From an uncultured Clostridia bacterium (GTDB lineage Bacteria; Acidobacteriota; Aminicenantia; UBA2199): a DNA stretch of 53,146 bases. This document shows positions 19,500-46,024 of the stretch, one piece after another. The stretch's first letter is position 1; each line of letters starts with the position of its first letter. A program made the translations under genes and the position numbers. Under the pieces are notes generated by a model. That model was not told the DNA's origin and did no database searches. It worked only from the letters and a program-made list of their open reading frames with translations. The DNA lies in the NCBI GenBank assembly GCA_964573895.1, contig CAZNLS010000004.1, positions 1 to 53,146 on the forward strand, in the 5' to 3' direction.

Positions 19500-20546
19500 A
19501 TGACTATCGAATTAAAAAAAATTGCGGAAATGGTGGGGGCTGAAACCGTTGATTTGCCGAAAAAAATTAAAATTAGCGGAATTGCACCGATAGAGAGTGC
19601 TGCAACAGACCAGATAACCTTTCTTGCAAACAAAAAATATCTTCGCTATGCCGGCATGACGAATGCTGCAGCTATTATCACTTCATCCGAGTTTGACCTG
19701 CCGGAAGGTAAAATAGCACTGATTGTTAAAAATCCCTATGAAGCATTTATTAAGATAGTTAAATTCTTTAACAAACGGAAAAATTCGGATATCGCATCCG
19801 GGATTTCCGATCTTGCCTTTTTACACGATTCTTCCACGCTGGCGGAAGATGTATCAGTTGCTCCCTTTGCATACATAGGAGAAAATGTCAGGATAGGAAA
19901 GGGAACGAGAATCGGCGCAAATGTTGTAGTGATGAAAGGAAGCACAATCGGGAATAATTGCCTTATATATCCGAATGTAACCCTGATGGATCAGACAATC
20001 ATCGGAAACAGAGTAATACTCAATGCAGGATCAGTCCTTGGAGGAGACGGATTCGGATTTATTCCCGGTCAAAAAGGTCTGGAAAAGATCCCCCAGACGG
20101 GCAATGTAGTTATCGAAGATGACGTGGAGATCGGTGCGAACACCTGCGTGGACAGGGCTGTAACCGGATCCACGACTATCAAATACGGAACAAAAATAGA
20201 TAACCTTGTCCAGATCGGCCATAATGTGAGGATAGGTTCGGATTCTATTATAGTATCGATGGCGGGAATTTCAGGTTCAACAGTCATAGGTGACAGAGTA
20301 ACTATTGGCGGCCAGGCCGGATTCGGGCAGCATATCAGAGTAGGAGACGGTGCAACAGTAGCAGGTCAGGCCGGAGTAACAAAAAATGTTCCGGAAAATA
20401 CAATTGTTTCCGGTTACCCGGCAAAAGAGCATATGAAGGCAATCAGGGAGGAGATTGCAGTAAGAAATCTACCTTCCCTGAAAAAAAAGATAATGGAGCA
20501 GGAAAAGAGACTGGCAAAGCTGGAAGAATCAATTAATATCAAATAA
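19500..20546 (+). CDS. lpxD: UDP-3-O-acylglucosamine N-acyltransferase
   Basis: 348 aa. N-terminal LpxD domain (..ITFLANKKY..), a long hexapeptide-repeat beta-helix, and a C-terminal helical tail. Confidence 0.9.
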   Translation: MTIELKKIAEMVGAETVDLPKKIKISGIAPIESAATDQITFLANKKYLRYAGMTNAAAIITSSEFDLPEGKIALIVKNPYEAFIKIVKFFNKRKNSDIASGISDLAFLHDSSTLAEDVSVAPFAYIGENVRIGKGTRIGANVVVMKGSTIGNNCLIYPNVTLMDQTIIGNRVILNAGSVLGGDGFGFIPGQKGLEKIPQTGNVVIEDDVEIGANTCVDRAVTGSTTIKYGTKIDNLVQIGHNVRIGSDSIIVSMAGISGSTVIGDRVTIGGQAGFGQHIRVGDGATVAGQAGVTKNVPENTIVSGYPAKEHMKAIREEIAVRNLPSLKKKIMEQEKRLAKLEESINIK

Positions 20547-20834: not shown

Positions 20835-21848
20835 GTGAAAAAAAAAGTACTTCTAATACATACCGGGGGGACGATAGGAATGAGCCGGGATATAGAGAGC
20901 GGTGTCTTAAAACCTGAGATATTCCATGAAAGCCTCCACAACTTCATCCCCCAGCTAAACGAAATCGCGGATATCGATGTTGAGATCCCTTTTTTAATCG
21001 ACAGCTCGGAAATGAAGCCTGAATATTTAAAAAAGATAGTTTCGATTATCAGAAAATGTTCCGACTGTTATTCAGGGATAGTGATATCTCACGGAACCGA
21101 CACAATGGCATACACAGCATCTGCTCTCTCTTATATGCTAATGAACCTTCCCTTTCCCGTAATTCTGACCGGTGCCCAAAAACCCCTGAGTGAAATTAGG
21201 AGCGATGCCAGATCGAATCTCATAAATGCTATTGAGCTGGCTACCAAAGGAATTAACGAGGTATCTGTAATGTTTAACAATAAACTCATGCGTGGAAACA
21301 GGACGACAAAAGATCATATAAACCATTTTGATGCATTTTCCTCTCCAAACTATCCACTTTTAGCAAAGACAGGCATTAATATAGAGATTTACAAAAAAAA
21401 CATTCTAAAACAGGATGGCCTCTTTCATATATTCGAAAATCTCGATAATTCAATTGCAGTGCTCAAAATCTTTCCCGGTATAAATCCGGATTATTTCAAT
21501 CCCGGACCTCAATTCAGGGCTGTTGTTATCATCGCATATGGTGCCGGAACTTTCCCATTATCCAATTCAAAATTTCTGAACAAAGCTCTCTCATGGATTG
21601 ACTCCCAAAAAACCGTCATTCTAATGAGCGAAGTAAAAAGGGGGGTGCTTGCTCCCCTGCTTTATGAATCAGGGAAAAAACTTCTCGATGCCGGTGCACT
21701 TAATTCCGGTGATATGACATTTGAAGCAGCAGTTACTAAATTAATGTTTTTACTGGGTCAGTATAATGATCCATCTAAAATAAAGCTAAATTTCAAAAAA
21801 CCCATTGCAGGAGAGATATCATCCGGATCCTTATCATACAGGGATTGA
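20835..21848 (+). CDS. ansA: L-asparaginase, type I (cytoplasmic) family
   Basis: HTGGTIGM and HGTDTM catalytic motifs. I prefer the GTG at 20835, directly after the stop of the small ORF, over the ORF-track start at 20766, which lies in an A-rich overlap. Confidence 0.8.
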   Translation: MKKKVLLIHTGGTIGMSRDIESGVLKPEIFHESLHNFIPQLNEIADIDVEIPFLIDSSEMKPEYLKKIVSIIRKCSDCYSGIVISHGTDTMAYTASALSYMLMNLPFPVILTGAQKPLSEIRSDARSNLINAIELATKGINEVSVMFNNKLMRGNRTTKDHINHFDAFSSPNYPLLAKTGINIEIYKKNILKQDGLFHIFENLDNSIAVLKIFPGINPDYFNPGPQFRAVVIIAYGAGTFPLSNSKFLNKALSWIDSQKTVILMSEVKRGVLAPLLYESGKKLLDAGALNSGDMTFEAAVTKLMFLLGQYNDPSKIKLNFKKPIAGEISSGSLSYRD

Positions 21849-23177
21849 ATACTTTTTTTGAAGATATTTTTCCTTGATGAGATTTACCAGTTCACCATTT
21901 TCACTATGACCTGTCTTCTGGGCAATAATTCTGCCTCTTAACGGCCTGCCTAAAAGATAAAAATCCCCCATTATATCCAGAATTTTATGTCTTGCAAGTT
22001 CATCTTTAAATCTCAGTTCAGTATTAAGAATCTTGCCATTGTCTATTAAAATAAAATTGTTCAGCCTTCCGCCTTCCGCAAGCCCCATTTTTGCCAGTTT
22101 TCTGAACTCCTCTACAAAACCGTATGTTCTTGAAGGAGCAATCTCATTTTCAAAATCTTCAGGACTTTCGAGACAGAATTCATAGCTGGATCTGCCAAGC
22201 GGTTCCGGATATACCGTTGTATACCTGACGCAAAACCTGTCAAAAGGTTCTATCTTTATGTATTTTTCGTTTTCTCCCTCTTTTCCCACTATTATACTTT
22301 CGTCAATTACAATTTCAGGGATAAATTCTTCCTGTTCTTTTATTCCGCTCTCTCTTATGAATTCACAGAATCTGCTTGCTGATCCATCATCAATCGGAAC
22401 CTCTTTATTTATTTTTACCAGTAAATTGGAAATTCCAAATGCATTCAGGGTTGCAAGAAAATGCTCAATTGTCCTGGCAATTATTCCATCCTTCTGAATA
22501 GAGGTTGCATAGCTGGTCGAATCAAGAAATTCAATCCTTGCCGGGACATATCCCTTCTCGGAAATATTTTCAAACCTGATCCCTTTTCCCGGAGGCAATG
22601 GGCTGATAGACATGCCGGTCCTCTCACCTGAATGAAGACCGAGGCCGTAAAAAACATTGCTTTTTTCGACGGTTTTTTGTTGTCTGACAAATTTGTTTGA
22701 CTCCAGGTCATACTCTTCAACACCGGTATTCTCCTTAACAATCTCTCTCTGCATCGCTTCAATGTCTGCTTTCTCCCTGACCATATCCCGCAGCATTTTA
22801 TTCTCATCAAGAATTTTTTTATACTCGTTGCCTTTGCTTACCGCAAGAAGCACTTTATCAAGACTCAGAGGCTTTTCGAGAAAATCAAAAGCACCATCTT
22901 TCACTGCCTGAACAGCTGAAGAAATATTGCCGTGGCCCGAGATCATTATAACAACCTGTGTCGGATCAATCTTCAAAATTTTGTCAAGAGTTTCAAGACC
23001 ATCTATTCCGGGAAGCCAAATATCGAGAAATATAAGATCCGGTTTTAAATTTACAAACTTTTCGTACCCCTCCTCTCCTGAAGAAGCAAAAAAAACAGTG
23101 AATCCTTCATCTTCCAGAACGGATGCAATGGAGACCTGGATATTCTTTTCATCATCGATAACAAGAACTTTTTTCAT
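21834..23177 (-). CDS. lpxC: response-regulator receiver domain fused to UDP-3-O-acyl-N-acetylglucosamine deacetylase
   Basis: 447 aa. Residues 1 to about 120 form an NtrC-type REC domain (DDE at 8-10, D52 in FLDIWLPG, MISGHG, FLEKP). Residues from about 165 to 447 form LpxC (QKTV..GLGLHSG.., TIEHF, HKILDIMGD, KTGHSEN). The start overlaps the upstream AAA+ stop (ATGA). Confidence 0.88.
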   Translation of the reverse strand: MKKVLVIDDEKNIQVSIASVLEDEGFTVFFASSGEEGYEKFVNLKPDLIFLDIWLPGIDGLETLDKILKIDPTQVVIMISGHGNISSAVQAVKDGAFDFLEKPLSLDKVLLAVSKGNEYKKILDENKMLRDMVREKADIEAMQREIVKENTGVEEYDLESNKFVRQQKTVEKSNVFYGLGLHSGERTGMSISPLPPGKGIRFENISEKGYVPARIEFLDSTSYATSIQKDGIIARTIEHFLATLNAFGISNLLVKINKEVPIDDGSASRFCEFIRESGIKEQEEFIPEIVIDESIIVGKEGENEKYIKIEPFDRFCVRYTTVYPEPLGRSSYEFCLESPEDFENEIAPSRTYGFVEEFRKLAKMGLAEGGRLNNFILIDNGKILNTELRFKDELARHKILDIMGDFYLLGRPLRGRIIAQKTGHSENGELVNLIKEKYLQKKYSIPV

Positions 23178-26122
23178 CCGTTTTCACCGTCCATTCCTGA
23201 CTCCTCTTCAATCACACTTTTAAAATTTACAGTACTGAATTTTACTGATGAACCTGAAAATTTAGCATTAATTTCACCCTTCAGATAAAATTCCACGGTT
23301 TGCATTGTTTCCCATTCAGGGAGGAGAGAAAGATGTGCAATCTTCTCAAGAATAGACTTCTTTATAGTACGTCCGATGTTTCTCGCACCGTACTGTGCAG
23401 AGTAACCTTTATCTATAAGTTTCTCTATTACATTTTTTGGTATATTCAAAGATTTACCATCTGCCGACAGTTTTTTTACTGTGTCAGACAATTGCAAATC
23501 AATTATTTTTTCGATATCTTTCCGTTCCAATGTATCAAATACTATTATATCATCAATCCTGTTTATGAATTCCGGTGAAAAAAACTTTTTTACTGATTTA
23601 TCAATTTCATAATCGCTAACCCGTTCTCCCTTTTCACTGGAATTATATCCCATCAATTGCCTGGAATAGAGTGAAGTTCCAATATTTGAGGTCATAATAA
23701 TTGTTGCATGAGAGAAATCCACCACATTTCCCCGTGCATCTGTAAGTCTCCCCGCATCAAAAACCTGAAGAAAAATGTTAAGGAGTTGATAATCGGCTTT
23801 TTCAATTTCATCGAGAAGGATTACCGAATAGGGATTTTTCCTGACTTTATCCGTAAGCTGAGTGGCATCATTGTATCCCACATATCCGGGCGCGGCTCCG
23901 ACAAATCTTGAATATGTAAATTTTTCCATATATTCAGACATATCAATTCTTATAACATTTTCCCTTGATCCCAGTAAATATTCAGAAAGCACAAGGGCTG
24001 TTTCGGATTTTCCGACACCGGTTGGCCCAACAAACAGGAAAACACCATCCGGGCGGCTGCTGTTTACTTCAAACCCGAGCTTTGATGATATAATCCCGGA
24101 AACCAGCCTGCTGACCGCTTTTTTCTGACCTATGATCTCTCTGTTTATATTCTTCTCCAGATTCGATAATTTTTCCTTCATTGAGACCGAAGCTTTTGCT
24201 TCGGGAAGATTCATCAGATCTGAAATAACTTCGGCGATATCATCTTCAGTCACTTTAAAAACCGGCTCACTTTTTCTAATCCCCTTATACTTAACCTTCG
24301 AAATCACACGGTCAAATATCATAATTGCAGAATCAGGGAGCTTTTTCCCGAAAAAATTTTTTGTACCGTTTTCAATAATAAGCTCAATTATAGAATCCGG
24401 AACAATAATATCATCGTTAAGTATGCTCTTCTTTGCATGTTCTTTTAATATTATTTCCGTCTCTTCTTTACTCATTTCCTTCACGTTTACACGTTGAAAA
24501 TGAGATAAAAAAGATTGATCTTTTTCAAGGGAATTTTTGTATTCATCATAAGTGGATGTAGCAATCACCCTGATTGAACCATCACGGAGGAACTGCTTAA
24601 GTATATTTACAAGATCAAGTGAAGTACCTCTGGCAGTTCCCGGAGATATCATCAAATGGATATCTTCGAGAACAAGGAGGCTGTTTTCACTTTTAAACTC
24701 TTCAAGTACTTTTACTACTTTTTCCTCAAACTGGCCTCTGTATTTTGTTCCGATCAGAAGTGATACAAAATTTATCTCCTTTAAGCTTATACCCTTCAGT
24801 TCCGCAGGGACTTCATCCCTGTTAATTCTGTCTGCGAGGATTTTTAAAAAGGTACTTTTCCCAACACCGCTTTCTCCTACAAGCATGAGATTATTCCTGG
24901 AAGAAGAAATTAGAATTTCAATAGCCTGCCTTAGCTCACGATCTCTCTGATATAAGAAGTTCTGTTCATGCGTAACCTTTTCAGAAATATCAAAAAAAAG
25001 CTCTCTGGCCGCCCCTTGTTTTGAAACTTCTCTGCCTTTTTTAAGAATTGATCTCAATTTTTTTATCTTCTCAGAAAGTTCCCTGTCATAATTAATACTG
25101 TAAGCTTTTTCATAATTTTCGATAGCAGTTTTATATCTTCCCTCTTTTTCATAAATTCTTGCACGAATTTTAAATCCCTGATAATAACGTGGATATTTCC
25201 GGATGAATTTGTCAACCTGAAGCTTAAGATCCTCATGCTTCCCTGTATTTTCAAGAATTTCAAGTCTGATTAGAAAGAACATCGGATAAGTGTTTATAGG
25301 GGACGGAAGGTTTTTTATGTAATTATTGCTCTCGGCAAAATTTTCTTCCGAAACTGATATTACTGCCATCTCAGCATTTTTTAATACTTTGGGATATGTA
25401 TCACCTTTTAAACCAATGAGTCTCAATGCCTGTTCAAAAGCCAGATTTCTCAGCAGATAAACATATAGTCTGTGAAGGAGGATCCTGTCAGCTATAATTA
25501 GACTTTTTTCTTTTGCCAAATCACTATATCTCAGCCCCTTTTTCTCAATGCTTCCAAGGATAAGAACACTACCCCCGCTGCACTGCACAAACGGAGTAAG
25601 GGGAATAGACAGTTCGTCAAAACTGAACATAACACACTCTCCCGGTGTATCCTTTTCACCCGAGATAATCAGAGTCCCTGAGATTTTTTGTTCGAAGACT
25701 TTGAAAAAATTATCAAACCAGAAAGTAAAATCTGCAAAGAATGATTCTTTTTCCTTTTTAAGTCTGTAATTCCTGACATTTTTAAAATAATCTTCGAGAT
25801 TCTCGATAATAAATATAAATGTCTGTTTTTCAGTCCTTGAAAATTTGAAAACCTGAGTATTAAAATTCTTCAGGTATGCTTTAATATAGCTGCAGCAATC
25901 TTCAAATTCATTAGACAACGGATCTGAAGAATCCTGCAGGTCAAGATCATTATTAAGCCCGAGACTCTCACTTTTCAAAAGAATTGATATTATCACAAAA
26001 AGTGAAATCGTTGCCTGTTCAGAAATTTCTCTTGTGAGTTTACTCCGGTCTAATGTGATATTACTCCCAAAAAAATTGAGGAATGCAGACACTGTTTTTT
26101 CTACCGGTTTATACTCTTCCAT
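23174..26122 (-). CDS. ClpA/ClpB-like double AAA+ ATPase with a novel N-terminal region
   Basis: D1 Walker A is GESGVGKST. D2 is GPTGVGKSE with Walker B ILLDEIEKA, and the C-terminal ..YGARNIGR.. D2-small domain is present. The first roughly 390 aa match nothing I recognise except two 13-residue IYEKxG repeats. I prefer the ATG at 26122 because the ORF-track start at 26203 is the -35 box of the promoter. Confidence 0.8.
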   Translation of the reverse strand: MEEYKPVEKTVSAFLNFFGSNITLDRSKLTREISEQATISLFVIISILLKSESLGLNNDLDLQDSSDPLSNEFEDCCSYIKAYLKNFNTQVFKFSRTEKQTFIFIIENLEDYFKNVRNYRLKKEKESFFADFTFWFDNFFKVFEQKISGTLIISGEKDTPGECVMFSFDELSIPLTPFVQCSGGSVLILGSIEKKGLRYSDLAKEKSLIIADRILLHRLYVYLLRNLAFEQALRLIGLKGDTYPKVLKNAEMAVISVSEENFAESNNYIKNLPSPINTYPMFFLIRLEILENTGKHEDLKLQVDKFIRKYPRYYQGFKIRARIYEKEGRYKTAIENYEKAYSINYDRELSEKIKKLRSILKKGREVSKQGAARELFFDISEKVTHEQNFLYQRDRELRQAIEILISSSRNNLMLVGESGVGKSTFLKILADRINRDEVPAELKGISLKEINFVSLLIGTKYRGQFEEKVVKVLEEFKSENSLLVLEDIHLMISPGTARGTSLDLVNILKQFLRDGSIRVIATSTYDEYKNSLEKDQSFLSHFQRVNVKEMSKEETEIILKEHAKKSILNDDIIVPDSIIELIIENGTKNFFGKKLPDSAIMIFDRVISKVKYKGIRKSEPVFKVTEDDIAEVISDLMNLPEAKASVSMKEKLSNLEKNINREIIGQKKAVSRLVSGIISSKLGFEVNSSRPDGVFLFVGPTGVGKSETALVLSEYLLGSRENVIRIDMSEYMEKFTYSRFVGAAPGYVGYNDATQLTDKVRKNPYSVILLDEIEKADYQLLNIFLQVFDAGRLTDARGNVVDFSHATIIMTSNIGTSLYSRQLMGYNSSEKGERVSDYEIDKSVKKFFSPEFINRIDDIIVFDTLERKDIEKIIDLQLSDTVKKLSADGKSLNIPKNVIEKLIDKGYSAQYGARNIGRTIKKSILEKIAHLSLLPEWETMQTVEFYLKGEINAKFSGSSVKFSTVNFKSVIEEESGMDGENG

Positions 26123-26174
26123 TTGATCAGAACATTCTCCTTTGATCCTTTTCGGGACCGGAATTCTGCAAGAA

Positions 26175-26203
26175 ATTATAATCAGATAAACATAGTTTGT
26201 CAA
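26175..26203 (-). promoter_or_regulatory. perfect-consensus sigma70 promoter for the AAA+ / REC-lpxC operon
   Basis: On the minus strand: TTGACA (26203-26198), exactly 17 nt, TATAAT (26180-26175). AAAGGAG RBS upstream of the ATG at 26122. Confidence 0.7.
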
Positions 26204-26223
26204 TTTGACAGGCTCTGCTCAAA

Positions 26224-26252
26224 TTGCTTTTTAAATACCACTTTGATATAAT
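26224..26252 (+). promoter_or_regulatory. candidate promoter for the kinase operon (possibly leaderless mRNA)
   Basis: TTGCTT (26224-26229), 17-nt spacer, TATAAT (26247-26252). The -10 ends 8 nt before the ATG at 26261 and no Shine-Dalgarno sequence is present. Confidence 0.45.
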
Positions 26253-26260
26253 TTTTTAAA

Positions 26261-28618
26261 ATGGATAAAGTTACAGAGCTCATTAGAGACTATCCAATCC
26301 TGAAGCTCGTTCTGATAGTTGTTATAGTCGGAGTGATCTTAAAACTGGTATATGAAATACTGAAAATTGTAAAAGTTCTAAACATTCAGGATAAATCTTT
26401 TTTAGATGCGTTTTATTCCATTCTTTTTAAAAAATCTTATATAGCATCTCAGGCAAAAAAAGCCATAAAACAGGGGAACTTTTTAAAAGCAGGGAAAATT
26501 TACGAAGAGATCGGCGATTTTAAAAAAGCAGTTAAGGCATATGAGGACGGGAAGCAATTCAATGATATCGGCGAACTCTATGAAAAACTAAACAAAGAAA
26601 CACTTGCAATTGAAATTTATAAAAAAAGCGGTAATCTTGACGGTCTGGTAAAACTTTATATAAAAAGAAAAAACATTGATGAAGCGGGAAAACTCCTGGA
26701 GAACAGCAGCCGGCACCAGGAAGCAGCTGAACTTTATTATAATCATGGAAAATTTGAAAAGGCAGCACAAATTTACGAAAGGAAGGGATTTTACAAAAAA
26801 GCCGCTGTAATTTACGAGAAATCCGGAGATAAAAAAAAGGCTGCAATGAATTATGAAAAATGGTACAACTCAACTGCAGATACATCGATTGGATACCAGA
26901 GTAATTCACAACTTGACAATGATCTCGACAAGGCCGCTCAAATGTGGACAGAGACCGGTGAGATTGAACGTGCATACGAACTCCTTCTAAAGAATCATAA
27001 GTTCGAAAAAGCTGCCGAACTTGCACTAAAACTCAACAAATTAAAAGAAGCGGCTTCTCTTTTTGAAAAAGCACAGCAGCCAATCAGAGCCGCATCTCTT
27101 TATGAAAATATCGGTGAGGATAAAACTGCATGCCAGTTGAGAGGAGAAGATGCATTTGCACGCGGTAATACATCTGAAGCGGCAGAGTGGTTTCTCAAAG
27201 GCGAAGATTATATAAGAGCAGCAGAATTATTTGAATGGAATAAATTGTTTGATAAGGCTGCACACTGTTATTTTATGAACCAGAACTATCTTTCCGCAGC
27301 TGATAATTACATGAAGCATGGAAATGAAGAAGAGGCAGCAAAAATGTTTGAATTGGGAAAAGAGTGGAAAATGGCTGCCGATATCTCTTTTAAATTCAAA
27401 AAATACCAAAAATCCGGAGAACTCTACGAAAAGTCAGGCGATTTTTACAACTCCGGGGTCTCATTTCTCAGGGTCGATAATGAAAAGAGGGCACTGGCTA
27501 ATTTTCAAAAAGTTCCCATGAATTCGGAAAATTATGAAAAAGCAATAACACAAATGGCAAATATCTTCCTCGCAAACAGGAAGCCCCAGCTTGTAGTTGA
27601 AAAGATCGGAAAAATGCTCCAGGATCAGACCATCAATAAGGAGAATCTCGAATGGTTCTATATATTGGGACAGGCAGAAGAGAATCTCGGAAATTTCAAA
27701 AAAGCATTCGAAATATACCAGGGAATCTTAACAGAAGATTATTCATTCAGGGATGTTCACCAGAAGATTCAGGAAGTCGAAAAACTTATTAAAAAATATA
27801 AAGAAATGGACCTTGTAGCAGATAATTCCACAGGAAGATACAAGATCATAAGGAAAATTGGCGAAGGCGGAATGGGGGTAGTTTTCAAGGCAGAGGATAC
27901 TGTTTTAAAGAGGATTGTTGCCCTGAAAATATTAAATAAAAGTCTGATCAAAGACAAAAGAAACCTTGAAAGATTCTTCACGGAAGCACGTTCGACAGCT
28001 TCACTTTCACATGCAAATATTGTTACGGTCTATGATGTTGGACAGCTTGATGACGATTATTTTATTTCCATGGAGTTTATCGAAGGTGAAAACTTCATGA
28101 CAATTCTAAGGAGAAAAAACAAGTTCACGATTCCCCAGATTCTTTTTGTAACCATAAAAGTATTGAAAGCACTTGATTATTCACACCGGAAGGGAATAAT
28201 CCACAGGGATATCAAACCTCATAATATTATGATAACACGTCAAAAAGAGATTAAAATAATGGATTTCGGTCTTGCAGTAATCAGAGGAGAACAAAAAAAA
28301 GGAGACTCGGGAGTAGTAACCGGAACACCGTATTATATGTCACCCGAACAGATCCAGGGAGTCGGAGCAGATCACAGAACAGATATATATTCAACCGGAG
28401 TAACTATTTTTCACCTTATAACAGGCAGAGTTCCTTTCAAAGGTGAAAATGTCTTTTACCAACATCTCTTTGAACCTGTGCCTCCAATCAAAGATATTGA
28501 ACCGGCTGCTCCCCAGAAACTTGTTGATATAGTTGAAAAATGTATGGAAAAAAAGCGTGAAGACCGATATCAGAGTGCCCAGGACGTATTGAACGCAATA
28601 AAAACAATTAAAATATAG
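26261..28618 (+). CDS. membrane-anchored helical-repeat protein with C-terminal Hanks-type Ser/Thr kinase domain
   Basis: 785 aa. N-terminal TM helix (LKLVLIVVIVGVILKLV), repeat region at residues about 77-410, and a kinase domain from about residue 525 (GEGGMGVVFKA, VALKIL, HRDIKPHN, DFGLA, GTPYYMSPE). Confidence 0.88.
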   Translation: MDKVTELIRDYPILKLVLIVVIVGVILKLVYEILKIVKVLNIQDKSFLDAFYSILFKKSYIASQAKKAIKQGNFLKAGKIYEEIGDFKKAVKAYEDGKQFNDIGELYEKLNKETLAIEIYKKSGNLDGLVKLYIKRKNIDEAGKLLENSSRHQEAAELYYNHGKFEKAAQIYERKGFYKKAAVIYEKSGDKKKAAMNYEKWYNSTADTSIGYQSNSQLDNDLDKAAQMWTETGEIERAYELLLKNHKFEKAAELALKLNKLKEAASLFEKAQQPIRAASLYENIGEDKTACQLRGEDAFARGNTSEAAEWFLKGEDYIRAAELFEWNKLFDKAAHCYFMNQNYLSAADNYMKHGNEEEAAKMFELGKEWKMAADISFKFKKYQKSGELYEKSGDFYNSGVSFLRVDNEKRALANFQKVPMNSENYEKAITQMANIFLANRKPQLVVEKIGKMLQDQTINKENLEWFYILGQAEENLGNFKKAFEIYQGILTEDYSFRDVHQKIQEVEKLIKKYKEMDLVADNSTGRYKIIRKIGEGGMGVVFKAEDTVLKRIVALKILNKSLIKDKRNLERFFTEARSTASLSHANIVTVYDVGQLDDDYFISMEFIEGENFMTILRRKNKFTIPQILFVTIKVLKALDYSHRKGIIHRDIKPHNIMITRQKEIKIMDFGLAVIRGEQKKGDSGVVTGTPYYMSPEQIQGVGADHRTDIYSTGVTIFHLITGRVPFKGENVFYQHLFEPVPPIKDIEPAAPQKLVDIVEKCMEKKREDRYQSAQDVLNAIKTIKI
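26489..27490 (+). repeat. array of about 24 tandem degenerate 13-residue (39-nt) protein repeats inside the kinase gene
   Basis: Consecutive 13-mers read directly from the translation: AGKIYEEIGDFKK, AVKAYEDGKQFND, ..., AAELYYNHGKFEK, AAQIYERKGFYKK, AAVIYEKSGDKKK, .... The consensus is roughly A-A-x-h-Y-E-K-x-G-x-x-x-K. One 18-aa linker and one 17-aa unit interrupt the register. Confidence 0.8.
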
Positions 28619-30921: not shown

Positions 30922-31125
30922 GTGAATTTAAATATTATAATACTGATTATTTGTTCGGTTATCACTATTGAAGGAGCGATCCTCCTCATCTCACCTTCAA
31001 AAATAAAAAAAATGATCAGGGAAATTCTTGAAATCCCGGATGGAACATTGAGACTCTTTGCCGTGATAATGACAATCACAGGATTGATAATAATCTATTT
31101 TTTAAGGGACAGTATATGCAGATAA
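30922..31125 (+). CDS. small two-helix membrane protein, DUF2065-like
   Basis: 67 aa with two hydrophobic helices flanking a charged loop. GTG start; overlaps the hutH start by 10 nt. Confidence 0.5.
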   Translation: MNLNIIILIICSVITIEGAILLISPSKIKKMIREILEIPDGTLRLFAVIMTITGLIIIYFLRDSICR

Positions 31126-32627
31126 AAATCGATGGAAACAGTTTAACACTTGATGCATTTCAATCCGTTGCAGATGGAATTGCAAAGACAGTACTGTCGG
31201 ATAGTGCAAAGAAAAAAATTAATTTTGCCAGAAAAACACTGGAAGAGCTGATAAATACCGGGCAGGCATTCTATGGAGTAAATACCGGGTTCGGAGCACT
31301 TGCTAACAGAAAAATAGAAAAAAGAGATCTGAAAAAACTTCAAAAAAACCTGATAAAAAGCCACACTGCCGGAGTGGGAAACATGCTGCCCGACAATATA
31401 GTCCGGGGAACGATGCTTCTAAGGGCAAACGTACTTGCAAAAGGTTTTTCCGGAGTAAGGATCCAGGTTGTTGAATTCCTTCTTGAAATGCTCAACAGGG
31501 ATATTCTGCCGTTGATCCCATCGAAGGGATCAGTTGGAGCTTCCGGTGATCTTGCTCCGCTGGCACATCTTGCTATCACTCTATTGGGTGAAGGAGAGGT
31601 GAAATATAAAGGGAATGTCTGTCCTGCAAAAGAGGCTCTAAAAAAAAGCGGAATGAAACCTCTTGTTCTTCTTGAGAAAGAGGGTCTTGCTCTTATCAAC
31701 GGAACACAGGTTTTAACTGCGATTGCCGCACTGAATTTGCTTGAAAGTGAACACCTTGTTAAGATAGCAGATATTGCCGGTGCACTTACTTTTGAAGCAC
31801 AGCTTGGGAATCCTTCTCCATTCTTCGAGGATATCCAGCGAGTAAGACCATTCCCGGGACAGAAAACAACAGCATCAAATATAAGGAAACTGATAAAAAA
31901 TTCAAAGCTTTGGGATTCTCATAAAGGAAAAGAAAAGGTCCAGGATGCATATTCCATAAGATGTATTCCTCAGGTTCACGGAGCAGTAAGGGATACTCTT
32001 TCATTTGTGAGAAATACAGTTGAAACCGAAATAAATTCTGCAACCGAGAATCCTATGATCTTTCCTGAAAAAAAAGTGATTTTATCGGGAGGAAATTTTC
32101 ACGGAGCTCCCGTTGCTTTTGCTATGGATTATCTTTCGATTGCAATGACAGAGTTAGGAAATATATCCGAAAGGAGAATCGACAGAGTCATAAATCCCGC
32201 TACAAATATGAATCTTCCTCCCTTCCTTATACGCGATAACGGCCTTAATTCCGGATTTATGATAGCTCATGTGACTGCAACTTCTCTCACTTCTGAAAAC
32301 AGGACACTTGCCCATCCTGCATCTGTTGATAATATTCCAACTTCAGCAAACCAGGAAGATCATGTAAGCATGGGAAATTTTGCTTCAAGAAAAGCAGCCG
32401 AAATTATTGCAAATGTAAAATATATTCTGGCAATTGAGATCCTCTGCTCTCTCCAGGCACTGGATTTTTATGAGCATACACCCGGAGTTGCGCTTGAAAA
32501 ATTCAAAAAAAGGGTCAGGGAAAAAGTACCTTTTCTGTCTGAGGATGACAGGATGGATACACTTTTTGAAGGAGTTGTCGAAATTATAAATGACAGGAAA
32601 TTTATAAAAACTCTGAATTTGTTATAA
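31116..32627 (+). CDS. hutH: histidine ammonia-lyase
   Basis: 503 aa. MIO-forming motif GSVGASGDLAPLAHL, YGVNTGFG, and the S-H pair in LIKSHTAGVG that is characteristic of HAL. Confidence 0.85.
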   Translation: MQIKIDGNSLTLDAFQSVADGIAKTVLSDSAKKKINFARKTLEELINTGQAFYGVNTGFGALANRKIEKRDLKKLQKNLIKSHTAGVGNMLPDNIVRGTMLLRANVLAKGFSGVRIQVVEFLLEMLNRDILPLIPSKGSVGASGDLAPLAHLAITLLGEGEVKYKGNVCPAKEALKKSGMKPLVLLEKEGLALINGTQVLTAIAALNLLESEHLVKIADIAGALTFEAQLGNPSPFFEDIQRVRPFPGQKTTASNIRKLIKNSKLWDSHKGKEKVQDAYSIRCIPQVHGAVRDTLSFVRNTVETEINSATENPMIFPEKKVILSGGNFHGAPVAFAMDYLSIAMTELGNISERRIDRVINPATNMNLPPFLIRDNGLNSGFMIAHVTATSLTSENRTLAHPASVDNIPTSANQEDHVSMGNFASRKAAEIIANVKYILAIEILCSLQALDFYEHTPGVALEKFKKRVREKVPFLSEDDRMDTLFEGVVEIINDRKFIKTLNLL

Positions 32628-33635: not shown

Positions 33636-35165
33636 ATGGCCATAGAATTAAACGGTTCAGGTTTAACTATCGAAAAGTTAGTCAGAATTGCACGATTTAA
33701 TGAAAAAGTGAATCTTTCAAATGATGCAATAATGCGGATAAAAGCATGCCGTACCATGCTTGAGAAAAAAATTGAAGCTAATGAAATAATGTATGGAGTA
33801 AACACCGGGATCGGTGAGTTTTCAGAGGTGGTTCTGAATGACGACCAGGTAAAAGAATTCCAGAAATATCTGATTTATAACCATGCTGCTGGAATCGGAG
33901 ATCCGGCTCCAATCGAATATGTACGCGGAGCGATGGCCGGAAGAATCAACGTTCACGCTCATGGTAATTCAGGCTGCCGGCTTGAAATCACGCAAACACT
34001 CGTTGAAATGCTTAACAAAGGAGTCACACCTTTTGTCTGTCAGAAAGGTTCAGTAGGGGCTTCCGGAGACCTGGCTCCTATGTCACAGATTGCACTTCTT
34101 CTAATGGGTGAAGGGCAGGCATATTATTTGGGAGAACTTCTTGACGGCAAAGTTGCTATGGAGAGAGCAGGTATCAAAATCCCGGGACTCCAGGCAAGAG
34201 ACGGCCTTGCTGCAATAAACGGATCCAATGTCCTGACGGCAATGTCCGCAATATTTCTATATGATTCATTTAGATGGTTAAAACAGGCTGAGATTGCTGC
34301 TGCAATGTCGCTGGAAGCATTGAAGGCTAACATGAAACCTTATACCCCCCTCCTGCATGAAGTCAGGGGTTTTAAAGGAGCAATAGAGAGCGCAAAATCA
34401 ATCGGAAAACTGGTTAAAAACGGTGATCTGGCTGAAGGAAAAATCAAATGCAAAGTCCAGGATGCCTATTCGATGCGATCAACACCGCAGGTGATCGGAG
34501 CAGCTAGAGATGCTCTTACTTATGCAAGATCCCAGGTTGAAATCGAATTAAACGGCGTCGGTGATAACCCGATCTTCTTTCCGGATAAAAACATTCAGAT
34601 ATCAGGCGCCAATTTTCAGGGAACTCCGGTTTCACTTCCAATGGATATGGCCGGTGCTGCAATTACCATGGTCAGTGTTATGTCGGAAAGAAGAATGAAC
34701 CGGCTCAACCATCCGGCACTCAATGTCGGCCTTCCTGCCTTTCTGACAAAAGGAGCGGGAATGTTCTCAGGATTGATGCTGAGTCAGTATACAGCCGACA
34801 TGCAGATAGTTGAACAGAGAATTTTATGCATGCCCGCCTCCATCCAATCTATCCCGGCAGCAGCTGATCAGGAAGATTTTGTGTCAATGGGAATGAATAC
34901 TGCTATTAAAAATTTTCAGATACTGGACAATGCATACGGAATCCTTGGGATCGAGTTTATGGCAGCAGCACAAGCCCTTGATTTCCGTGATTACAACTTC
35001 GGGAAAGGAGTATCAACTGCAAAAAAAGTAGTCAGGAAATATGTAGACTTTCTTGAAATAGACAGGCCGCTATATCCTGATCACACAAAAATGAAGGAAC
35101 TGGTTAAATCCTGTGAAATCCTTGAAGAAGTTGAAAAAGAGATAGGCCCTCTGGAAGCACTTTAG
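33636..35165 (+). CDS. aromatic amino acid ammonia-lyase family protein (HAL/PAL/TAL family, divergent paralog)
   Basis: 509 aa. MIO motif GSVGASGDLAPMSQIA and YGVNTGIG. The selectivity position reads N-H (LIYNHAAGIG) rather than S-H. Confidence 0.85.
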   Translation: MAIELNGSGLTIEKLVRIARFNEKVNLSNDAIMRIKACRTMLEKKIEANEIMYGVNTGIGEFSEVVLNDDQVKEFQKYLIYNHAAGIGDPAPIEYVRGAMAGRINVHAHGNSGCRLEITQTLVEMLNKGVTPFVCQKGSVGASGDLAPMSQIALLLMGEGQAYYLGELLDGKVAMERAGIKIPGLQARDGLAAINGSNVLTAMSAIFLYDSFRWLKQAEIAAAMSLEALKANMKPYTPLLHEVRGFKGAIESAKSIGKLVKNGDLAEGKIKCKVQDAYSMRSTPQVIGAARDALTYARSQVEIELNGVGDNPIFFPDKNIQISGANFQGTPVSLPMDMAGAAITMVSVMSERRMNRLNHPALNVGLPAFLTKGAGMFSGLMLSQYTADMQIVEQRILCMPASIQSIPAAADQEDFVSMGMNTAIKNFQILDNAYGILGIEFMAAAQALDFRDYNFGKGVSTAKKVVRKYVDFLEIDRPLYPDHTKMKELVKSCEILEEVEKEIGPLEAL

Positions 35166-37327: not shown

Positions 37328-38401
37328 CTATTTTTTCAATAATTTTTCAAATAACGGTGTCGTTTGTTCTATAAATTTATTTCCCGAATGTCTAATCATG
37401 AATACCGGAATTTTTTCTTTCAGAGCAAATTTTAAACCTTTCTTTGGTCCCAAAACGTCAATAGCAGTTGCATAAGCATCAGCCATCATACATGAACGGT
37501 GAATTACCGTCACTGACACAAGATCGTGTATAACAGGATAACCGGTATCCGGATCAATTGTATGTGAGTATCTCTTTCCATTTTTTTCAAAGTAATTCAT
37601 GTAATCGCCGGATGTAGCCATTGAACAGTCAGAGATATGTATAACCCTGGACAACCCGGGTCTTACCTTTGGTGATTTTATTCCGACTGACCACGTGGCT
37701 CCTGCTCCATTCACTCCCCGAACCCTTATTTCTCCACCGATCTCCACCAGATAGTTAAGAAAACCTTTTGAATCAAGGAACTCGGCAACCCTGTCTACTC
37801 CGAATCCCTTCGCAATCGCTGACAAGTCACAATACAGCCCCTTTAATTTTTTTTTTAAAGCAGGAGGATTGTATCTTACATCGAGGAATTTATAACCGAT
37901 TTTTTTTTTCAGCTTCTCAATTACGGTTTTTTCAGGTATCTCTCTTTTTGAAAAATCTTTGCCGAATCCCCAAATATTCACAAGAGGACCAACTGTAATA
38001 TCAAATTTACCCATCGTTTTACGGCTTACATCAAGGGAAGCACTTATTACAAACACAGTATCATTTGAAATGGTGAACCAGTCATTTTTCCCATAGGAAT
38101 TAAAACGGGAAATTTCAGAATCTTTTCTGTAGGTTGACATTTTATTATTAACATCTTCCAGAATAGAATTAATTCCCTGTTCAAGCTCATTTAGTTTTTT
38201 TTTGACATTACCAAGAAGAAGAAAATTATTTCTGACAATCTTCACACTGAATGTTGTCCCCATGGTACTTCCGGTTATTGAAACAGTGTTAGAGAGCTTA
38301 GTATTACTCTGTTTGCATGAAATACTAAAAATTATTGAGAAAAAGATTATTACTACTGAAAAAAAACGAATTTTAGAGATTATGAATACGGATTTTTTCA
38401 T
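37328..38401 (-). CDS. apbE: FAD:protein FMN transferase (flavin transferase), lipoprotein
   Basis: 357 aa with lipobox SISC, MGTTFSV motif and C-terminal ..SGDY.. region. 4-nt overlap with the nqrF stop. Confidence 0.88.
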
Positions 38402-39633
38402 CCACCGAAATCATCAAGCATAATATTTTCAGGTTCAACACCGAGATTATCAAGCATATCTATAACAGCTTTATTCATCATTGGCGGCCCGCACATGTAA
38501 TATTCACAATCCTCCGGATTAGGGTGATCTTTGAGATAATTTTCGTATAGTACCTGATGGATAAAACCGGTATAACCTTTCCAATTATCTTCCGGGAGAG
38601 GTTCCGAAAGAGCTATATTCAATTCAAAGTTTTTGTTATTTTTCTGCAGATTTTTAAAATCATCTATATAAAACATTTCACGAAGACTTCTCGCTCCATA
38701 CCAGAATGTGACTTTACGGTCAGTGTGTATTCTTTTCAACTGGTCGAAAATATGTGATCTCATCGGTGCCATTCCTGCTCCACCGCCAATGAATACCATT
38801 TCAGCATCAGTCTCCTTTGCAAAAAATTCACCGTAGGGACCGGAAATAGTAACTTTATCTCCGGGTTTGAGGTTAAAAATATATGAAGACATTTGTCCCG
38901 GAGGCACATTAGGCATAGATGGCGGAGGAGATGCAATTCTTACATTGAGCATGATAATCCCTTTCTCTTCAGGGTAGTTAGCCATCGAGTATGCTCTTGA
39001 GATCTCGGCTGTTACTTTAGACTCATATCTCCACAGATCAAATTTATCCCAATCGTGCTTATATTCATCCTCTATTAAAAAATCCCTGTAATTAAGTTTG
39101 TGAGAAGGGGCATCTATCTGGATATATCCCCCTGCCCTAAAGTCAACATGCTCTCCTTTGGGAAGTTCTAATACCAGTTCCTTGATAAAAGTTGCAACAT
39201 TGTGATTTGACCTTACAGTACATTCCCATTTCTTTACATCAAAAATTTCCGGAGGAATTTCAATTTTCAGATTCTGTTTAACGGAAACCTGACAGGACAA
39301 TCTAACCCCTTCCCTTGCTTCACGCCTGTTCACCATAGACGTTTCAGTTGGAAGAATATCTCCGCCGCCTTCAAAAATCTTGCATTTACACTGCCCGCAG
39401 GTTCCCTGACCTCCACATGCGGAAGGGATAAAAATTTTGTTATCTGCAAGTGTGTTCAGCAGCTTATCACCTGCGGGAACACTCAGACTTTTCGACTCAT
39501 CATCATTTATCAGGATATTTACATTACCGCTGGCTACGAGCTTAGATTTTGCAAGCAGTATAAACACAACAAGTGCGAGAACAATGAATGTAAACATAAA
39601 AACGCCAAGTAGTACAATATTTAATCCGCTCAT
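38398..39633 (-). CDS. nqrF: Na+-translocating NADH:quinone reductase subunit F
   Basis: 411 aa. N-terminal TM helix, 2Fe-2S ferredoxin motif [12 protein letters not shown], and an FAD/NADH-binding domain ([15 protein letters not shown]). Confidence 0.93.
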
Positions 39634-39645
39634 TTCTATCCTTCC

Positions 39646-40257: not shown

Positions 40258-40260
40258 TTT

Positions 40261-40881: not shown

Positions 40882-40882
40882 A

Positions 40883-45911: not shown

Positions 45912-45960
45912 ACATCCTCCTGAAAATTCATATACAGAAGTATAATACACAAATTGTTAA

Positions 45961-45994
45961 AAAAAATAAAAAAAAAGGGGGGCATAAGCCCCCC
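45961..45994 (-). terminator. rho-independent terminator of the Spy-like gene
   Basis: On the minus strand: GGGGGGC-TTAT-GCCCCCC (45994-45977), followed directly by a run of about 16 nt that is almost all T (45976-45961). Confidence 0.8.
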
Positions 45995-46024
45995 ATTTGT
46001 GGAGTTACATGAAAAAATTTTTAA

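Follow-up and report, generated by a model that had tools for sequence, protein, structure and literature searches.

In a 53,146-nucleotide stretch of DNA from an uncultured Aminicenantes bacterium (the window, meaning the whole stretch analysed), LpxC, the enzyme of the committed step of lipid A synthesis, is encoded as the output domain of a response-regulator receiver, immediately behind a lineage-specific Clp-type AAA+ ATPase and near a divergent, membrane-anchored Hanks kinase. The account that we tentatively prefer is that of a phospho-switched REC-LpxC to which, in Aminicenantes, a kinase-unfoldase proteolysis layer has been added; it builds on what was observed: the domains, the phospho-acceptor and catalytic residues, the structure of the operon, the conserved promoters, the neighbouring genes and the ATPase motifs. 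The locus points to post-translational control of outer-membrane synthesis that is so far undescribed, and no description of control by a receiver-LpxC, ATPase and kinase was found in the literature searched. Pfam profiles find the three genes as originally predicted: a REC-LpxC of 447 aa, a double-AAA+ ATPase of 982 aa and a divergent repeat kinase of 785 aa.

The receiver-LpxC fusion

The fusion gene, its parts and the nearby lpxD are as follows.
21834..23177 (-), receiver::LpxC fusion gene, 447 aa (Pfam Response_reg and LpxC; TIGR00325 over cutoff)
22839..23168 (-), REC domain of NtrX/NtrC type, residues 4-113 (NCBIfam NtrX, solved structures)
22680..22838 (-), inter-domain linker, residues 114-166: alpha5 extension as far as residue ~136, followed by a low-confidence segment (AF2)
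21876..22679 (-), LpxC deacetylase domain, residues 167-434 (Pfam LpxC; alignment to Aquifex aeolicus LpxC)
19500..20546 (+), lpxD, encoding the acyltransferase that comes next in the lipid A pathway (Pfam LpxD and Hexapep)

Response_reg is matched with 95.5 bits and LpxC with 250.7 bits, the latter over profile positions 1-266 of 268, and the top solved-structure match of the LpxC part is the Aquifex enzyme, with the catalytic motifs in register. Among 36 homologues the receiver residues D8, D9, D52, S80 and K102 are invariant, as are E125, N126 and L129 of the linker. In the AF2 model residues 106-136 are helical, and pLDDT drops under 50 across 132-152; autoinhibition is not indicated, because the monomer (pTM 0.65) shows no fixed packing of REC against LpxC.

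That the fusion is a paralogue, regulatory or acting on another substrate, with a canonical lpxC elsewhere in the genome, is very unlikely. The equivalog-level TIGR00325 score, 213.7, exceeds the cutoff of 187.25; the zinc and catalytic residues (E238, H239, T351, H397, K398, D401, D405 and H424) are all invariant in the 36 homologues; lpxD lies 1.3 kb away, and close to the fusion in locus L001 too; and in every scan the LpxC sequences that these lineages yielded were fusions. No second lpxC was found within the 53-kb window.

Origin of the receiver

The best NCBIfam match of the receiver is NtrX (2.1e-36, residues 1-140), and the closest solved structures are the NtrC-family 1zit followed by 4d6x and 5m7n, which carry the search labels Fis-family regulatory protein and nitrogen assimilation regulatory protein and which we take to be Brucella NtrX entries. 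Judged from its sequence, the receiver is of NtrX origin. Nitrospinota encode a near-full-length NtrX::LpxC of about 735 aa, in which NtrX model positions 3-447 of 452 are followed by LpxC; L137 is an intermediate form with the linker left over, and the fusion in the window no longer has the AAA and HTH regions of NtrX.

Several uncultured phyla carry receiver-LpxC fusions. In a high-GC clade, two loci of which are labelled Binatota and Desulfurellaceae, 31 of the 35 assessable loci have an NtrY-type histidine kinase gene (NtrY_N, HAMP, PAS, HisKA, HATPase) directly upstream, ending 0-126 nt before REC-LpxC; within the 53-kb window no ntrY was found. Neither the ATPase nor the Hanks kinase lies near most of these fusions, namely those of the whole high-GC clade, of Nitrospinota and of one derived Aminicenantes clade. 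The widespread element of the locus is the fusion itself, a multi-phylum family, and its assignment to one specific module, as first proposed, does not hold. The two phospho-signalling domains of that proposal, REC and a Ser/Thr kinase, are both present; the NtrY-type donor upstream in the high-GC clade had been overlooked. In alphaproteobacteria NtrYX controls lpxC through transcriptional repression (PMC12444477; PMC7240162), as described for R. sphaeroides and C. crescentus (PMC12444477), whereas here the receiver would act directly on the LpxC of its own polypeptide.

The Clp-type ATPase

The features of the ATPase are these.
23174..26122 (-), lineage-specific ClpA/C-like double-ring AAA+ ATPase, 982 aa (AAA for D1, AAA_2 for D2, ClpB_D2-small)
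24968..26122 (-), novel N-terminal domain, residues 1-385 (AF2, Foldseek, profile search)
25088..25165 (-), TPR motif in the N-domain, residues 320-345 (weak Pfam TPR_8/TPR_1; BLASTP to kinase repeats)
24662..24667 (-), D1 Walker B, E486-D487 instead of D-E (family alignment)
23645..23653 (-), M824-G825-Y826, candidate ClpP-docking tripeptide in D2 (alignment to ClpC)

With the class I Clp/Hsp100 proteins ClpA, ClpC and ClpB the ATPase shares D1, D2 and D2-small and the KYR and GYVG pore loops. It matches ClpA 188-718 in a single continuous alignment and therefore has no M-domain, an absence common to ClpA. It differs from all three in its 385-aa N-domain, in the ED of its D1 Walker B and in Clp_N, which Pfam and NCBIfam profiles did not find, and it scores far under all equivalog cutoffs (ClpA 492 against 993). 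Its full-length relatives, of which at least 109 were found, measure about 990 aa and, where labelled, come from Aminicenantes/Acidobacteriota; ATPase and kinase occur on Aminicenantes-type contigs only.

The N-domain is modelled as a helical bundle, a 7-strand beta domain and TPR helices (pLDDT 85.9, pTM 0.85). Against the PDB, Foldseek matched the TPR part alone, to co-chaperone TPRs (E at least 1.7e-3), and among 1.84 billion representatives full-length profile matches occurred only in proteins of about 980-1000 aa or presumed fragments, the remaining matches listed being restricted to the TPR region. Model and profiles together suggest a domain private to the ATPase family that holds a TPR of peptide-binding type.

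In 109 family members the D2 Walker A/B and GYVG pore loop are invariant, and the D1 Walker B has E in 109 and D in 108, so that the D1 ring is probably hydrolysis-poor. The tripeptide MGY, at a ClpC-like position and ending in Tyr, is aligned to AGF/VGF in the ClpC proteins of S. aureus and B. subtilis; across the family its first residue is Met (83), Leu (14) or Val (7), its second Gly (109) and its third Tyr (107) or Phe (2). Tyr at the third place is unusual. These motifs make the ATPase look like a ClpP partner of a specialised kind, and the protease role first envisaged for the AAA+ machine would fit the conserved docking-type tripeptide; no clpP gene was seen within the window. Because it lacks Clp_N and has a private N-domain and an ED Walker B, the ATPase would appear to be a specialised paralogue and not a housekeeping ClpA/C.

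The Hanks kinase

The third gene is the following.
26261..28618 (+), membrane-anchored helical-repeat Hanks Ser/Thr kinase, 785 aa (Pfam Pkinase, TM, repeats)

The predicted architecture of a single N-terminal TM helix, a repeat array and a C-terminal Hanks domain is borne out. The one hydrophobic segment spans residues ~12-34 (Kyte-Doolittle 2.79, against at most 1.14 in the rest of the protein); TPR/Clathrin-like matches cover 62-500, and Pkinase (195.7 bits) covers 527-777, with GEGGMG, VALK, HRD, DFG and SPE motifs in the translation. Between residues 60 and 400 there is a 13-residue periodicity, the BLOSUM self-score being above zero at lags 13, 26 and 39 alone. An 'IYEKxG' repeat was said to be common to the kinase and the ATPase, and residues 320-345 of the latter, reading RIYEKEGRYKTAI/ENYEKAYSINYD, do align with the kinase array (BLASTP, 37% over 65 aa, pairwise E=2e-4); the likeness is real but weak and generic, because the ATPase stretch is one ordinary TPR motif. 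The LapB-like adaptor role proposed for the kinase repeats stays at the level of analogy, with no LapB family match among NCBIfam profiles.

Kinase orthologues (781-785 aa) are 62-94% identical, a conservation well above that of fusion or ATPase. In PADLOC the pair is matched by two kinase models, PD-T4-6 and mad6, and by some models for AAA proteins, which would suit an anti-phage defence system; the matches are confined to generic kinase and AAA cores, and the locus, with so conserved a kinase, is stably syntenic with housekeeping genes over many related MAGs, unlike mobile, patchy defence islands. We regard a defence function as exceedingly improbable.

Promoters and gene junctions

Two promoters lie between the divergent genes.
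26175..26203 (-), sigma-70-type promoter of the ATPase/REC-LpxC operon, TTGACA-17-TATAAT (12/12 consensus match)
26224..26252 (+), kinase promoter, TTGCTT-17-TGaTATAAT, extended -10 (sequence reading; locus alignment)

As the original prediction stated, the ATPase and kinase start codons (26122 and 26261) stand 138 nt apart on opposite strands, and the operon promoter, with its -35 at 26203-26198 and its -10 at 26180-26175, is perfect and the sole 12/12 match in the region. Both hexamers are kept in 14 related loci and the flanks drift, a conservation far above chance. The 982-aa ATPase start is right, because the database's 1009-aa TTG ORF begins at the TTG of the -35 box. The kinase promoter element AAAAATCAATTT...TTATATCA is conserved throughout the aligned related loci, and the divergent pair is kept in the 14; within this set, in loci having kinase and fusion without the ATPase, the operon promoter is predicted to drive REC-LpxC directly. 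Because the predicted kinase promoter ends 8 nt before the ATG, the kinase mRNA may be leaderless.

The junction reads GAA AAC GGA TGA / ATG AAA AAA, so ATPase stop and fusion start share the ATGA at 23174-23177, as had been claimed. Such an overlap is present in 9 of 13 measured ATPase-fusion junctions, the window included, and down to 39% ATPase identity; the other 4 are spaced by 14-49 nt. L169, outside this set, has 44 nt between its called genes.

Gene neighbourhoods in relatives

Every pairwise arrangement of kinase, ATPase and fusion occurs among relatives. All three genes are together in 9 loci (the window, L001, L012, L083, L086, L087, L088, L163 and L169), so the predicted synteny extends beyond the window. 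Three loci (L084, L089 and L091) have kinase and fusion without the ATPase, five have kinase and ATPase without the fusion, and one has ATPase and fusion without the kinase; two more have ATPase and fusion on contigs that end too soon to reveal a kinase. In the very divergent L166, ATPase and fusion are followed by a different Pkinase/TonB_C gene. Of the 23 fusion-centred loci, 13 have LpxC 3' of the ATPase, mostly with overlapping stop and start; of the 8 ATPase-centred loci, 5 have no LpxC downstream of it. A control module centred on LpxC, as first proposed, has this synteny in its favour; the kinase-ATPase link is stronger, and the ATPase gene is often not followed by LpxC, which may thus be one client of the pair and not its purpose.

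It is conceivable, and on balance rather unlikely, that kinase and ATPase form a general phospho-dependent protein quality-control or remodelling pair of Aminicenantes with many clients, REC-LpxC being under NtrY-like Asp phosphorylation alone and its gene position being ancestral and giving co-expression, with REC-LpxC no specific substrate of the ATPase. Their link is the most constant of all (7/7 of the ATPase-centred loci that could be assessed, including 5 that have no LpxC), the kinase outdoes its neighbours in conservation as expected of a hub protein, and in other phyla the fusion works without either, with NtrY adjoining. Against this, the stop-start overlap persists in distant ATPases, the kinase still adjoins the fusion where the ATPase is absent, an unrelated kinase-like gene again stands beside ATPase and fusion in L166, and kinase and/or fusion are the immediate neighbours of all 22 ATPase genes examined.

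Because unrelated neighbours are also syntenic (acyl-CoA dehydrogenase, DAO oxidoreductase, asparaginase and HAL keep their order in L001, L163-L165 and L168-L170), gene-order conservation may partly be shared ancestry. That it is entirely so, joining a housekeeping Clp chaperone and a housekeeping STPK that have no functional coupling, is improbable, given the conserved translational coupling and compact shared divergent promoter region, the three pairwise combinations that all outlast rearrangements and the specialised features of the ATPase.

Proposed mechanism and comparison with known systems

In the preferred account the fusion is a response regulator with the committed step of lipid A synthesis as its output, because an NtrX-type receiver joins a catalytically intact LpxC. 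Phosphorylation of the Asp52 pocket would alter LpxC, most likely by switching activity or oligomeric state via the long alpha5/linker helix, with an NtrY-like histidine kinase, adjacent in other phyla and presumably encoded elsewhere in the source genome, as donor. Receivers gate a fused enzyme in CheB and PleD, and RssB and CpdR hand clients to a Clp protease in a phosphorylation-dependent manner; here the output domain is LpxC, and a ClpA/C-type machine would take the place of ClpX as partner protease. We know of no description of LpxC as a REC output domain, and none was found in the literature searched.

In the second layer, that of Aminicenantes, the fusion is the second gene of a bicistron and is translationally coupled to the first, which encodes an unfoldase whose TPR-bearing N-domain would bind substrate or adaptor and whose D2, the motor ring, would dock ClpP through the [M/L/V]-G-[Y/F] loop. 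The anchored alpha-solenoid kinase, transcribed back-to-back with this operon, may act on the ATPase or on REC-LpxC, kinase and unfoldase forming a signal-to-proteolysis pair that would set the abundance of REC-LpxC as substrate, and possibly of other clients, with the receiver as regulated handle. LpxC may plausibly be subject to regulated proteolysis. In E. coli and Salmonella the AAA+ protease FtsH, with LapB(YciM)/YejM, determines how much LpxC is present; LapB, which guides FtsH, is an N-terminally membrane-anchored cytoplasmic TPR protein (PMC13333357, PMC11046580). The target step is alike, and proteolysis is what we infer here; the ATPase is of the soluble two-ring Clp type, the TPR-like protein has a Hanks kinase in place of LapB's rubredoxin domain, and LpxC, unlike that of E. 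coli, bears a receiver.

The proposed pair is comparable to McsB-ClpC(P), the phospho-degron system of Firmicutes, in which McsB is an arginine kinase and Clp_N the pArg reader, and to the PknB-dependent degradation of RseA by ClpC1P2 in M. tuberculosis; in both, clients of a ClpP-coupled unfoldase are marked or exposed by phosphorylation. Here too, a gene for a protein kinase is linked to one for a Clp class-I unfoldase, whereas this kinase is a Hanks Ser/Thr kinase with TM anchor and alpha-solenoid, and the unfoldase has a private N-domain in place of Clp_N. In mycobacteria, PknB-CwlM-MurA puts the committed step of peptidoglycan synthesis under post-translational control by a membrane Hanks kinase, the arrangement proposed here for another envelope polymer pathway; it differs in the pathway, in the extracellular PASTA sensors of its kinase and in proceeding independently of a protease.

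The receiver-LpxC fusion

LpxC controls the flux through LPS synthesis and is a target for antibiotics; what is known of its regulation comes chiefly from enterobacteria, where FtsH, LapB and YejM act. The key novelty of the locus considered here is a family of proteins in which an NtrX-type receiver is fused to LpxC. In the window the fusion lies beside genes for a Clp-type double AAA+ ATPase and a divergent, membrane-anchored Hanks kinase, and Pfam, NCBIfam and open reading frame analyses bear out the original prediction for all three products:

21834-23177, minus strand: receiver::LpxC fusion (REC-LpxC), 447 aa; Pfam Response_reg at residues 4-113, LpxC at residues 167-434
23174-26122, minus strand: ATPase, 982 aa; D1, D2 and D2-small modules, Clp/Hsp100 class
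26261-28618, plus strand: kinase, 785 aa; N-terminal hydrophobic helix, helical array, C-terminal Hanks kinase

The fusion scores above the cutoffs of the lpxC equivalog TIGR00325 (213.7, cutoff 187.25) and of Pfam PF03331 (250.7, cutoff 27, with profile positions 1-266 of 268 aligned), and its receiver part scores 95.5 bits on PF00072 (cutoff 30.2). In an alignment of 36 homologues the residues of the receiver acidic pocket and switch (D8, D9, D52, S80 and K102) are invariant, as are E238, H239, T351, H397, K398, D401, D405 and H424 of the LpxC domain. The best solved match of this domain is LpxC of Aquifex aeolicus, and the invariant residues align with its motifs TVEH, RTF, RHK..D..GD and GHS, positions that we take to supply the three zinc ligands (two His and one Asp) and the catalytic residues Glu, His and Thr. 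Both Pfam domains are present at full length in all 120 of the best database clusters (61-100% identity), and most of the organism-labelled clusters among these are Aminicenantes or Acidobacteriota. The placing of the window in this lineage is based on such labels of homologues; an exact look-up of its own fusion protein gave no record. A rival explanation, that the fusion is a non-housekeeping paralogue, is considered unlikely in view of the equivalog score and the invariant residues; within the 53-kb window the fusion is the only lpxC. The AF2 monomer model (pTM 0.65) has a helix at residues 106-136, then a flexible stretch, and gives no fixed or confident packing of REC against LpxC, so that a CheB-like occlusion is neither supported nor excluded by it.

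Full-text literature searches found no description of a receiver-LpxC fusion. In a term search, two reviews (PMC12444477, 2025; PMC13333357, 2026) showed no mention of a receiver or fusion, or of a Ser/Thr kinase, and the 2026 review mentioned neither a response regulator nor Clp.

Relationship of the fusion to NtrX and NtrY

Judged from sequence comparison, the window receiver is NtrX-derived. Its best match is NtrX (NF051870), over model positions 1-142 only and at 125.8 bits against a cutoff of 600; with a score below cutoff and the receiver part alone aligned, membership of the window protein in the NtrX family itself (REC, degenerate sigma-54-type AAA and HTH) was rejected. The closest solved structures are of the NtrC family, 1zit first, followed by 4d6x and 5m7n, the latter two presumably Brucella NtrX entries. 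A long form of the fusion occurs in Nitrospinota, where the first 440 residues of a protein of about 735 aa correspond to NtrX model positions 3-447 of 452 (a score of 259, under the cutoff of 600) and the remainder is LpxC; its NtrX part comprises REC, the degenerate sigma-54-type AAA and the lid/HTH region at near full length. The protein encoded at a further locus (L137, 911-2470) is intermediate, with about 115 additional residues between REC and LpxC. Taken together, the NtrX matches of the window receiver, the Nitrospinota long form and this intermediate indicate that the fusion proteins descend from an NtrX::LpxC fusion. The loci that bear on this origin and on the histidine kinase genes discussed below are as follows:

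L013:8807-11014 and L009:342-2546, plus strand: Nitrospinota NtrX::LpxC; also in L010, L011, L042, L044 and L104
L134:5278-7509, plus strand: NtrY-type histidine kinase gene of a high-GC locus; likewise in 30 other high-GC loci (L100-L146)

The metagenome scan also yielded a second, high-GC clade of about 50% identity, two members of which are labelled Binatota and Desulfurellaceae, and here too the receiver is fused in frame. Among the matches listed, 31 of the 35 loci that could be assessed have, upstream of the fusion, a gene for a product of about 745 aa with NtrY_N, HAMP, PAS, HisKA and HATPase domains; this gene ends 0-126 nt before the fusion and is often itself preceded by ruvC-ruvA-ruvB (10-15 loci each). 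The fusion gene of the high-GC clade takes the place of ntrX within an ntrYX operon. The Pfam sweep of the window matched no histidine kinase gene. In the manner of a Rosetta stone, the fusion argues for a direct link between NtrYX and LpxC and predicts control of the committed step by phosphorylation. The 2025 review describes NtrYX as a repressor of lpxC at the level of transcription, both in Rhodobacter sphaeroides and in Caulobacter crescentus (PMC12444477). A receiver welded to LpxC would be a new control principle and would offer a mechanistic reading of this known, indirect connection.

The Clp-type ATPase

The ATPase aligns with ClpA in one unbroken stretch (ClpA 188-718), which indicates that it has no M-domain, and the segments matched by ClpB and ClpC overlap within it, leaving no room for one. 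Without a coiled-coil M-domain in D1 it was rejected as a ClpB/Hsp104 disaggregase. It was likewise rejected as ClpA (TIGR02639), scoring 492 bits against 993 and having a novel N-domain in which no Clp_N domain was matched. Across 109 full-length relatives there is no variation in the D2 Walker A/B motifs or in either pore loop (KYR, GYVG), and the D1 Walker B reads hhhhED, not hhhhDE, in essentially all, a change that suggests a D1 ring able to bind nucleotide but poor in hydrolysis. The candidate ClpP-docking site is an MGY aligned with the AGF/VGF loop of ClpC in D2, a position that reads [M/L/V]-G-[Y/F] with an invariant Gly in the same 109 relatives. The protein is classed as a lineage-specific Clp-type unfoldase and is a candidate partner of ClpP; no clpP, ftsH or lapB gene was matched in the Pfam sweep of the window.

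AF2 gives a confident model of the N-domain (385 aa; pLDDT 85.9, pTM 0.85), made up of a helical bundle, a beta domain of seven strands and TPR helices. Only the TPR part matches solved structures, with weak E-values, and these matches are to the TPRs of peptide-binding co-chaperones (Hop TPR2A, Sgt2, CHIP, P58IPK). A profile search of 1.84 billion representative proteins gave 257 matches at E<=1e-10; among the best 150 of these, the whole N-domain is confined to proteins of roughly 980-1000 aa and to shorter, fragment-like ones, and the remaining matches cover the TPR region alone.

The divergent kinase

The kinase scores 195.7 bits on PF00069 (cutoff 31.7), with the motifs GEGGMG, VALK, HRDIKPHN and DFG all present. 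It has one single hydrophobic helix, at the N-terminus, followed by some 440 residues of helical array with a period of 13 residues and by a C-terminal Hanks kinase domain, the architecture originally described. The period is strict over residues ~60-500 (window 26438-27760, plus strand), giving 26 residues per hairpin compared with 34 in TPRs, and its score above the Pfam Clathrin/VPS cutoff (36.7 bits, cutoff 29.6) marks the region as a bacterial alpha-solenoid of the clathrin-leg type. There are no PASTA repeats, and a PASTA kinase (PknB/Stk1, NF033483) was rejected at 329.5 bits against 450, with the kinase core alone aligned.

The original prediction had likened the kinase to LapB/YciM. 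An N-terminal TM helix is common to both, and the cytoplasmic TPRs of LapB/YciM have a counterpart in the TPR-like repeats of the kinase, whereas at the C-terminus LapB/YciM carries a rubredoxin-type zinc site and the kinase its catalytic domain. The likeness is thus architectural only, and identity with LapB/YciM was rejected, there being no LapB match in NCBIfam or Pfam. A 13-residue repeat common to the ATPase and the kinase, also pointed out there, proved weak on closer comparison. Residues 320-345 of the ATPase read RIYEKEGRYKTAI/ENYEKAYSINYD and align locally to the repeats of the kinase (37% over 65 aa, E=2e-4 in one pairwise comparison), but they form a canonical TPR motif across the ATPase family; at this level of similarity the resemblance is regarded as generic, and as a sign of common origin or interaction it was rejected.

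Reduced forms of the kinase gene also occur. At L002, in a 9.1-Mb Aminicenantes genome (CP070627.1), the gene divergent from the ATPase (6258-6883, minus strand) corresponds to kinase residues 1-209 only; it encodes the TM helix and repeats at 61% identity, with the kinase domain absent nearby, and is interpreted as a truncated form limited to the adaptor part, or else as a pseudogene. At another related locus, L163, the kinase gene is broken up into three ORFs.

Gene junctions and promoters

The stop codon of the ATPase gene and the start codon of the fusion gene share the sequence ATGA in the window, and the start codons of the ATPase and kinase genes lie 138 nt apart, with the only perfect sigma-70 consensus of the region, TTGACA-17-TATAAT (26203-26175, minus strand), in the gap; each of these features had been predicted correctly. 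Among 13 measured loci with both ATPase and fusion genes, one of them from a relative with just 39% ATPase identity, the two genes overlap by 1-8 nt in nine and are separated by 14-49 nt in four. Back-to-back promoters are kept in 14 related loci while the surrounding intergenic sequence drifts. The operon-side promoter of these loci, directed towards the ATPase and fusion genes, is AATTGACAA-17-TATAAT, and the one on the opposite strand, directed towards the kinase gene, is TTGATT/TTGCTT-17-TGnTATAAT. The kinase promoter of the window (26224-26263, plus strand) has an extended -10 element, TGaTATAAT, which ends 8 nt before the ATG, and no Shine-Dalgarno sequence; most of the 14 loci (L164 and L165 excepted) have the same arrangement about 8 nt from the kinase start, which suggests a leaderless kinase mRNA.

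The conserved promoter also bears on the start of the ATPase. The database protein for the window ATPase (P0121) has 1009 aa and begins on a TTG formed by the first three bases of the -35 hexamer (window 26123-26203, minus strand). This start was therefore rejected and the ATG at 26122 taken as the real one, the annotated N-terminal 27 residues of P0121 being almost certainly untranslated. The operon -35 hexamer is also half of an inverted repeat, TGTCAA-A-TTGACA (window 26195-26207), and in several relatives the divergent -35 boxes together form TCAATTT-A-AAATTGA; the repeat could be an operator or a mere by-product of back-to-back promoters.

Gene neighbourhoods in related loci

Related loci came from look-ups of exact proteins and from one scan each of genomes and metagenomes. 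The genome scan gave at least six loci with the short-form fusion (one duplicating the related locus L001) and at least six with the Nitrospinota long form, and all locus frequencies come from a biased sample (for the metagenome scan, from among the matches listed). When the count is centred on the fusion, over 23 Aminicenantes-type loci with usable upstream flank, the ATPase gene is directly upstream in 13, the kinase gene is divergent from the fusion with no ATPase gene between them in three (L084, L089, L091), and the fusion stands alone in seven. When it is centred on the ATPase, the kinase gene is divergent in all seven assessable loci of eight, and the fusion follows in three of the eight, unrelated genes following the kinase-ATPase pair in the other five. 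All three pairwise combinations thus persist, kinase and ATPase being the tightest and the fusion a frequent, not obligatory, third member. In a rough NJ tree of the fusions, the loci with ATPase and fusion are basal within the Aminicenantes clade, six of the seven lone fusions form one derived clade (L092 branches apart), and the kinase-fusion arrangement arose twice. Identities among relatives are 62-94% for the kinase, 66-81% for the fusion, 44-67% for the ATPase and 26-40% for its N-domain; on these alignments the kinase is rated far more conserved than the fusion or the ATPase.

One reading of these arrangements is inherited synteny and nothing more. Neighbouring genes unrelated to the module (acyl-CoA dehydrogenase, DAO oxidoreductase, asparaginase) are syntenic in the same relatives, and for that reason gene-order conservation alone is weak evidence. 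Firmer points against inherited synteny are the coupling of ATPase and fusion genes by overlap, the shared promoter region and the locus with the most divergent ATPase, L166, in which the ATPase-fusion stop/start overlap is retained. Downstream of these two genes L166 has a further kinase-like gene:

L166:4481-6322, plus strand: 613 aa; partial Pkinase (C-lobe half) and TonB_C

Its product may be a pseudokinase reaching the periplasm. With the promoter pair and the ATPase/fusion junction both conserved, the arrangement is more than chance, and a recurrent, co-regulated neighbourhood of the three genes exists in Aminicenantes-type contigs. To this extent the original reading of the locus as a lipid A control module stands. 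It is weakened by the loci in which the fusion occurs without ATPase or kinase, among them the high-GC clade with its NtrY-type gene upstream, and by the prospect that the kinase-ATPase pair may serve more than LpxC.

A proposed model for control of LpxC

The best-supported part of our interpretation is that the fusion would act as a response regulator with LpxC as its output, in which phosphorylation of Asp52 by an NtrY-like kinase would act through the long alpha5/linker helix to alter the activity or assembly of LpxC. In Aminicenantes a second layer may be added, in which kinase and ATPase would form a signal-to-proteolysis pair that sets the abundance of REC-LpxC via ClpP, the receiver serving as the regulated handle. 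Kinase-Clp cases are known in McsB-ClpC and in PknB-dependent ClpC1P2 proteolysis, and the pair proposed here is likened to these. A competing explanation holds that the pair is a general proteostasis pair with which LpxC is merely co-expressed, consistent with the kinase-ATPase association in every assessable ATPase-centred locus and the absence of the fusion after the ATPase in five of eight. That the pair is a defence system was also considered and rejected, the PADLOC matches being to generic cores only.

The two layers could be combined in a phospho-switch and proteolysis circuit dedicated to lipid A, a proposal that we advance tentatively and consider rather doubtful in its complete form. 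The kinase would sense envelope or lipid status and phosphorylate the fusion or the ATPase, the private N-domain of the ATPase would read that state and feed LpxC to ClpP as a non-homologous replacement of FtsH/LapB/YejM, and the wider fusion family would represent NtrY/NtrX-type control of LpxC at the protein level in several phyla. Response regulators with enzymatic output and Clp-type regulated proteolysis are kinds of control already known; the kinase-ATPase layer, if true, would mean that the problem of LpxC control had been solved independently in evolution. Although the organisms are uncultured, all parts are soluble or singly anchored and are thus testable in vitro or in E. coli.

Other genes in the window

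Several further features of the window deserve mention. Three ORFs on the plus strand (3585-4604, 5041-6771 and 8634-9728; 339, 576 and 364 aa), which flank an asparagine synthase gene, gave no Pfam match. A pair of paralogous genes for aromatic amino acid ammonia-lyases (HAL/PAL), separated by 1 kb, is found at 31116-32627 and 33636-35165 (plus strand), and a complete Na+-translocating NADH:quinone reductase-type operon occupies 37328-44260 (minus strand), with genes for NqrA, NqrB, an FMN_bind subunit, two Rnf-Nqr membrane subunits, an NqrF-like protein and ApbE. At 45102-52184 (minus strand) an M48 peptidase gene, mnmG, mnmE, jag and yidC follow in series; clusters of the mnmG-mnmE-jag-yidC type usually adjoin the replication origin, and cumulative GC skew drops steadily across this part of the window.
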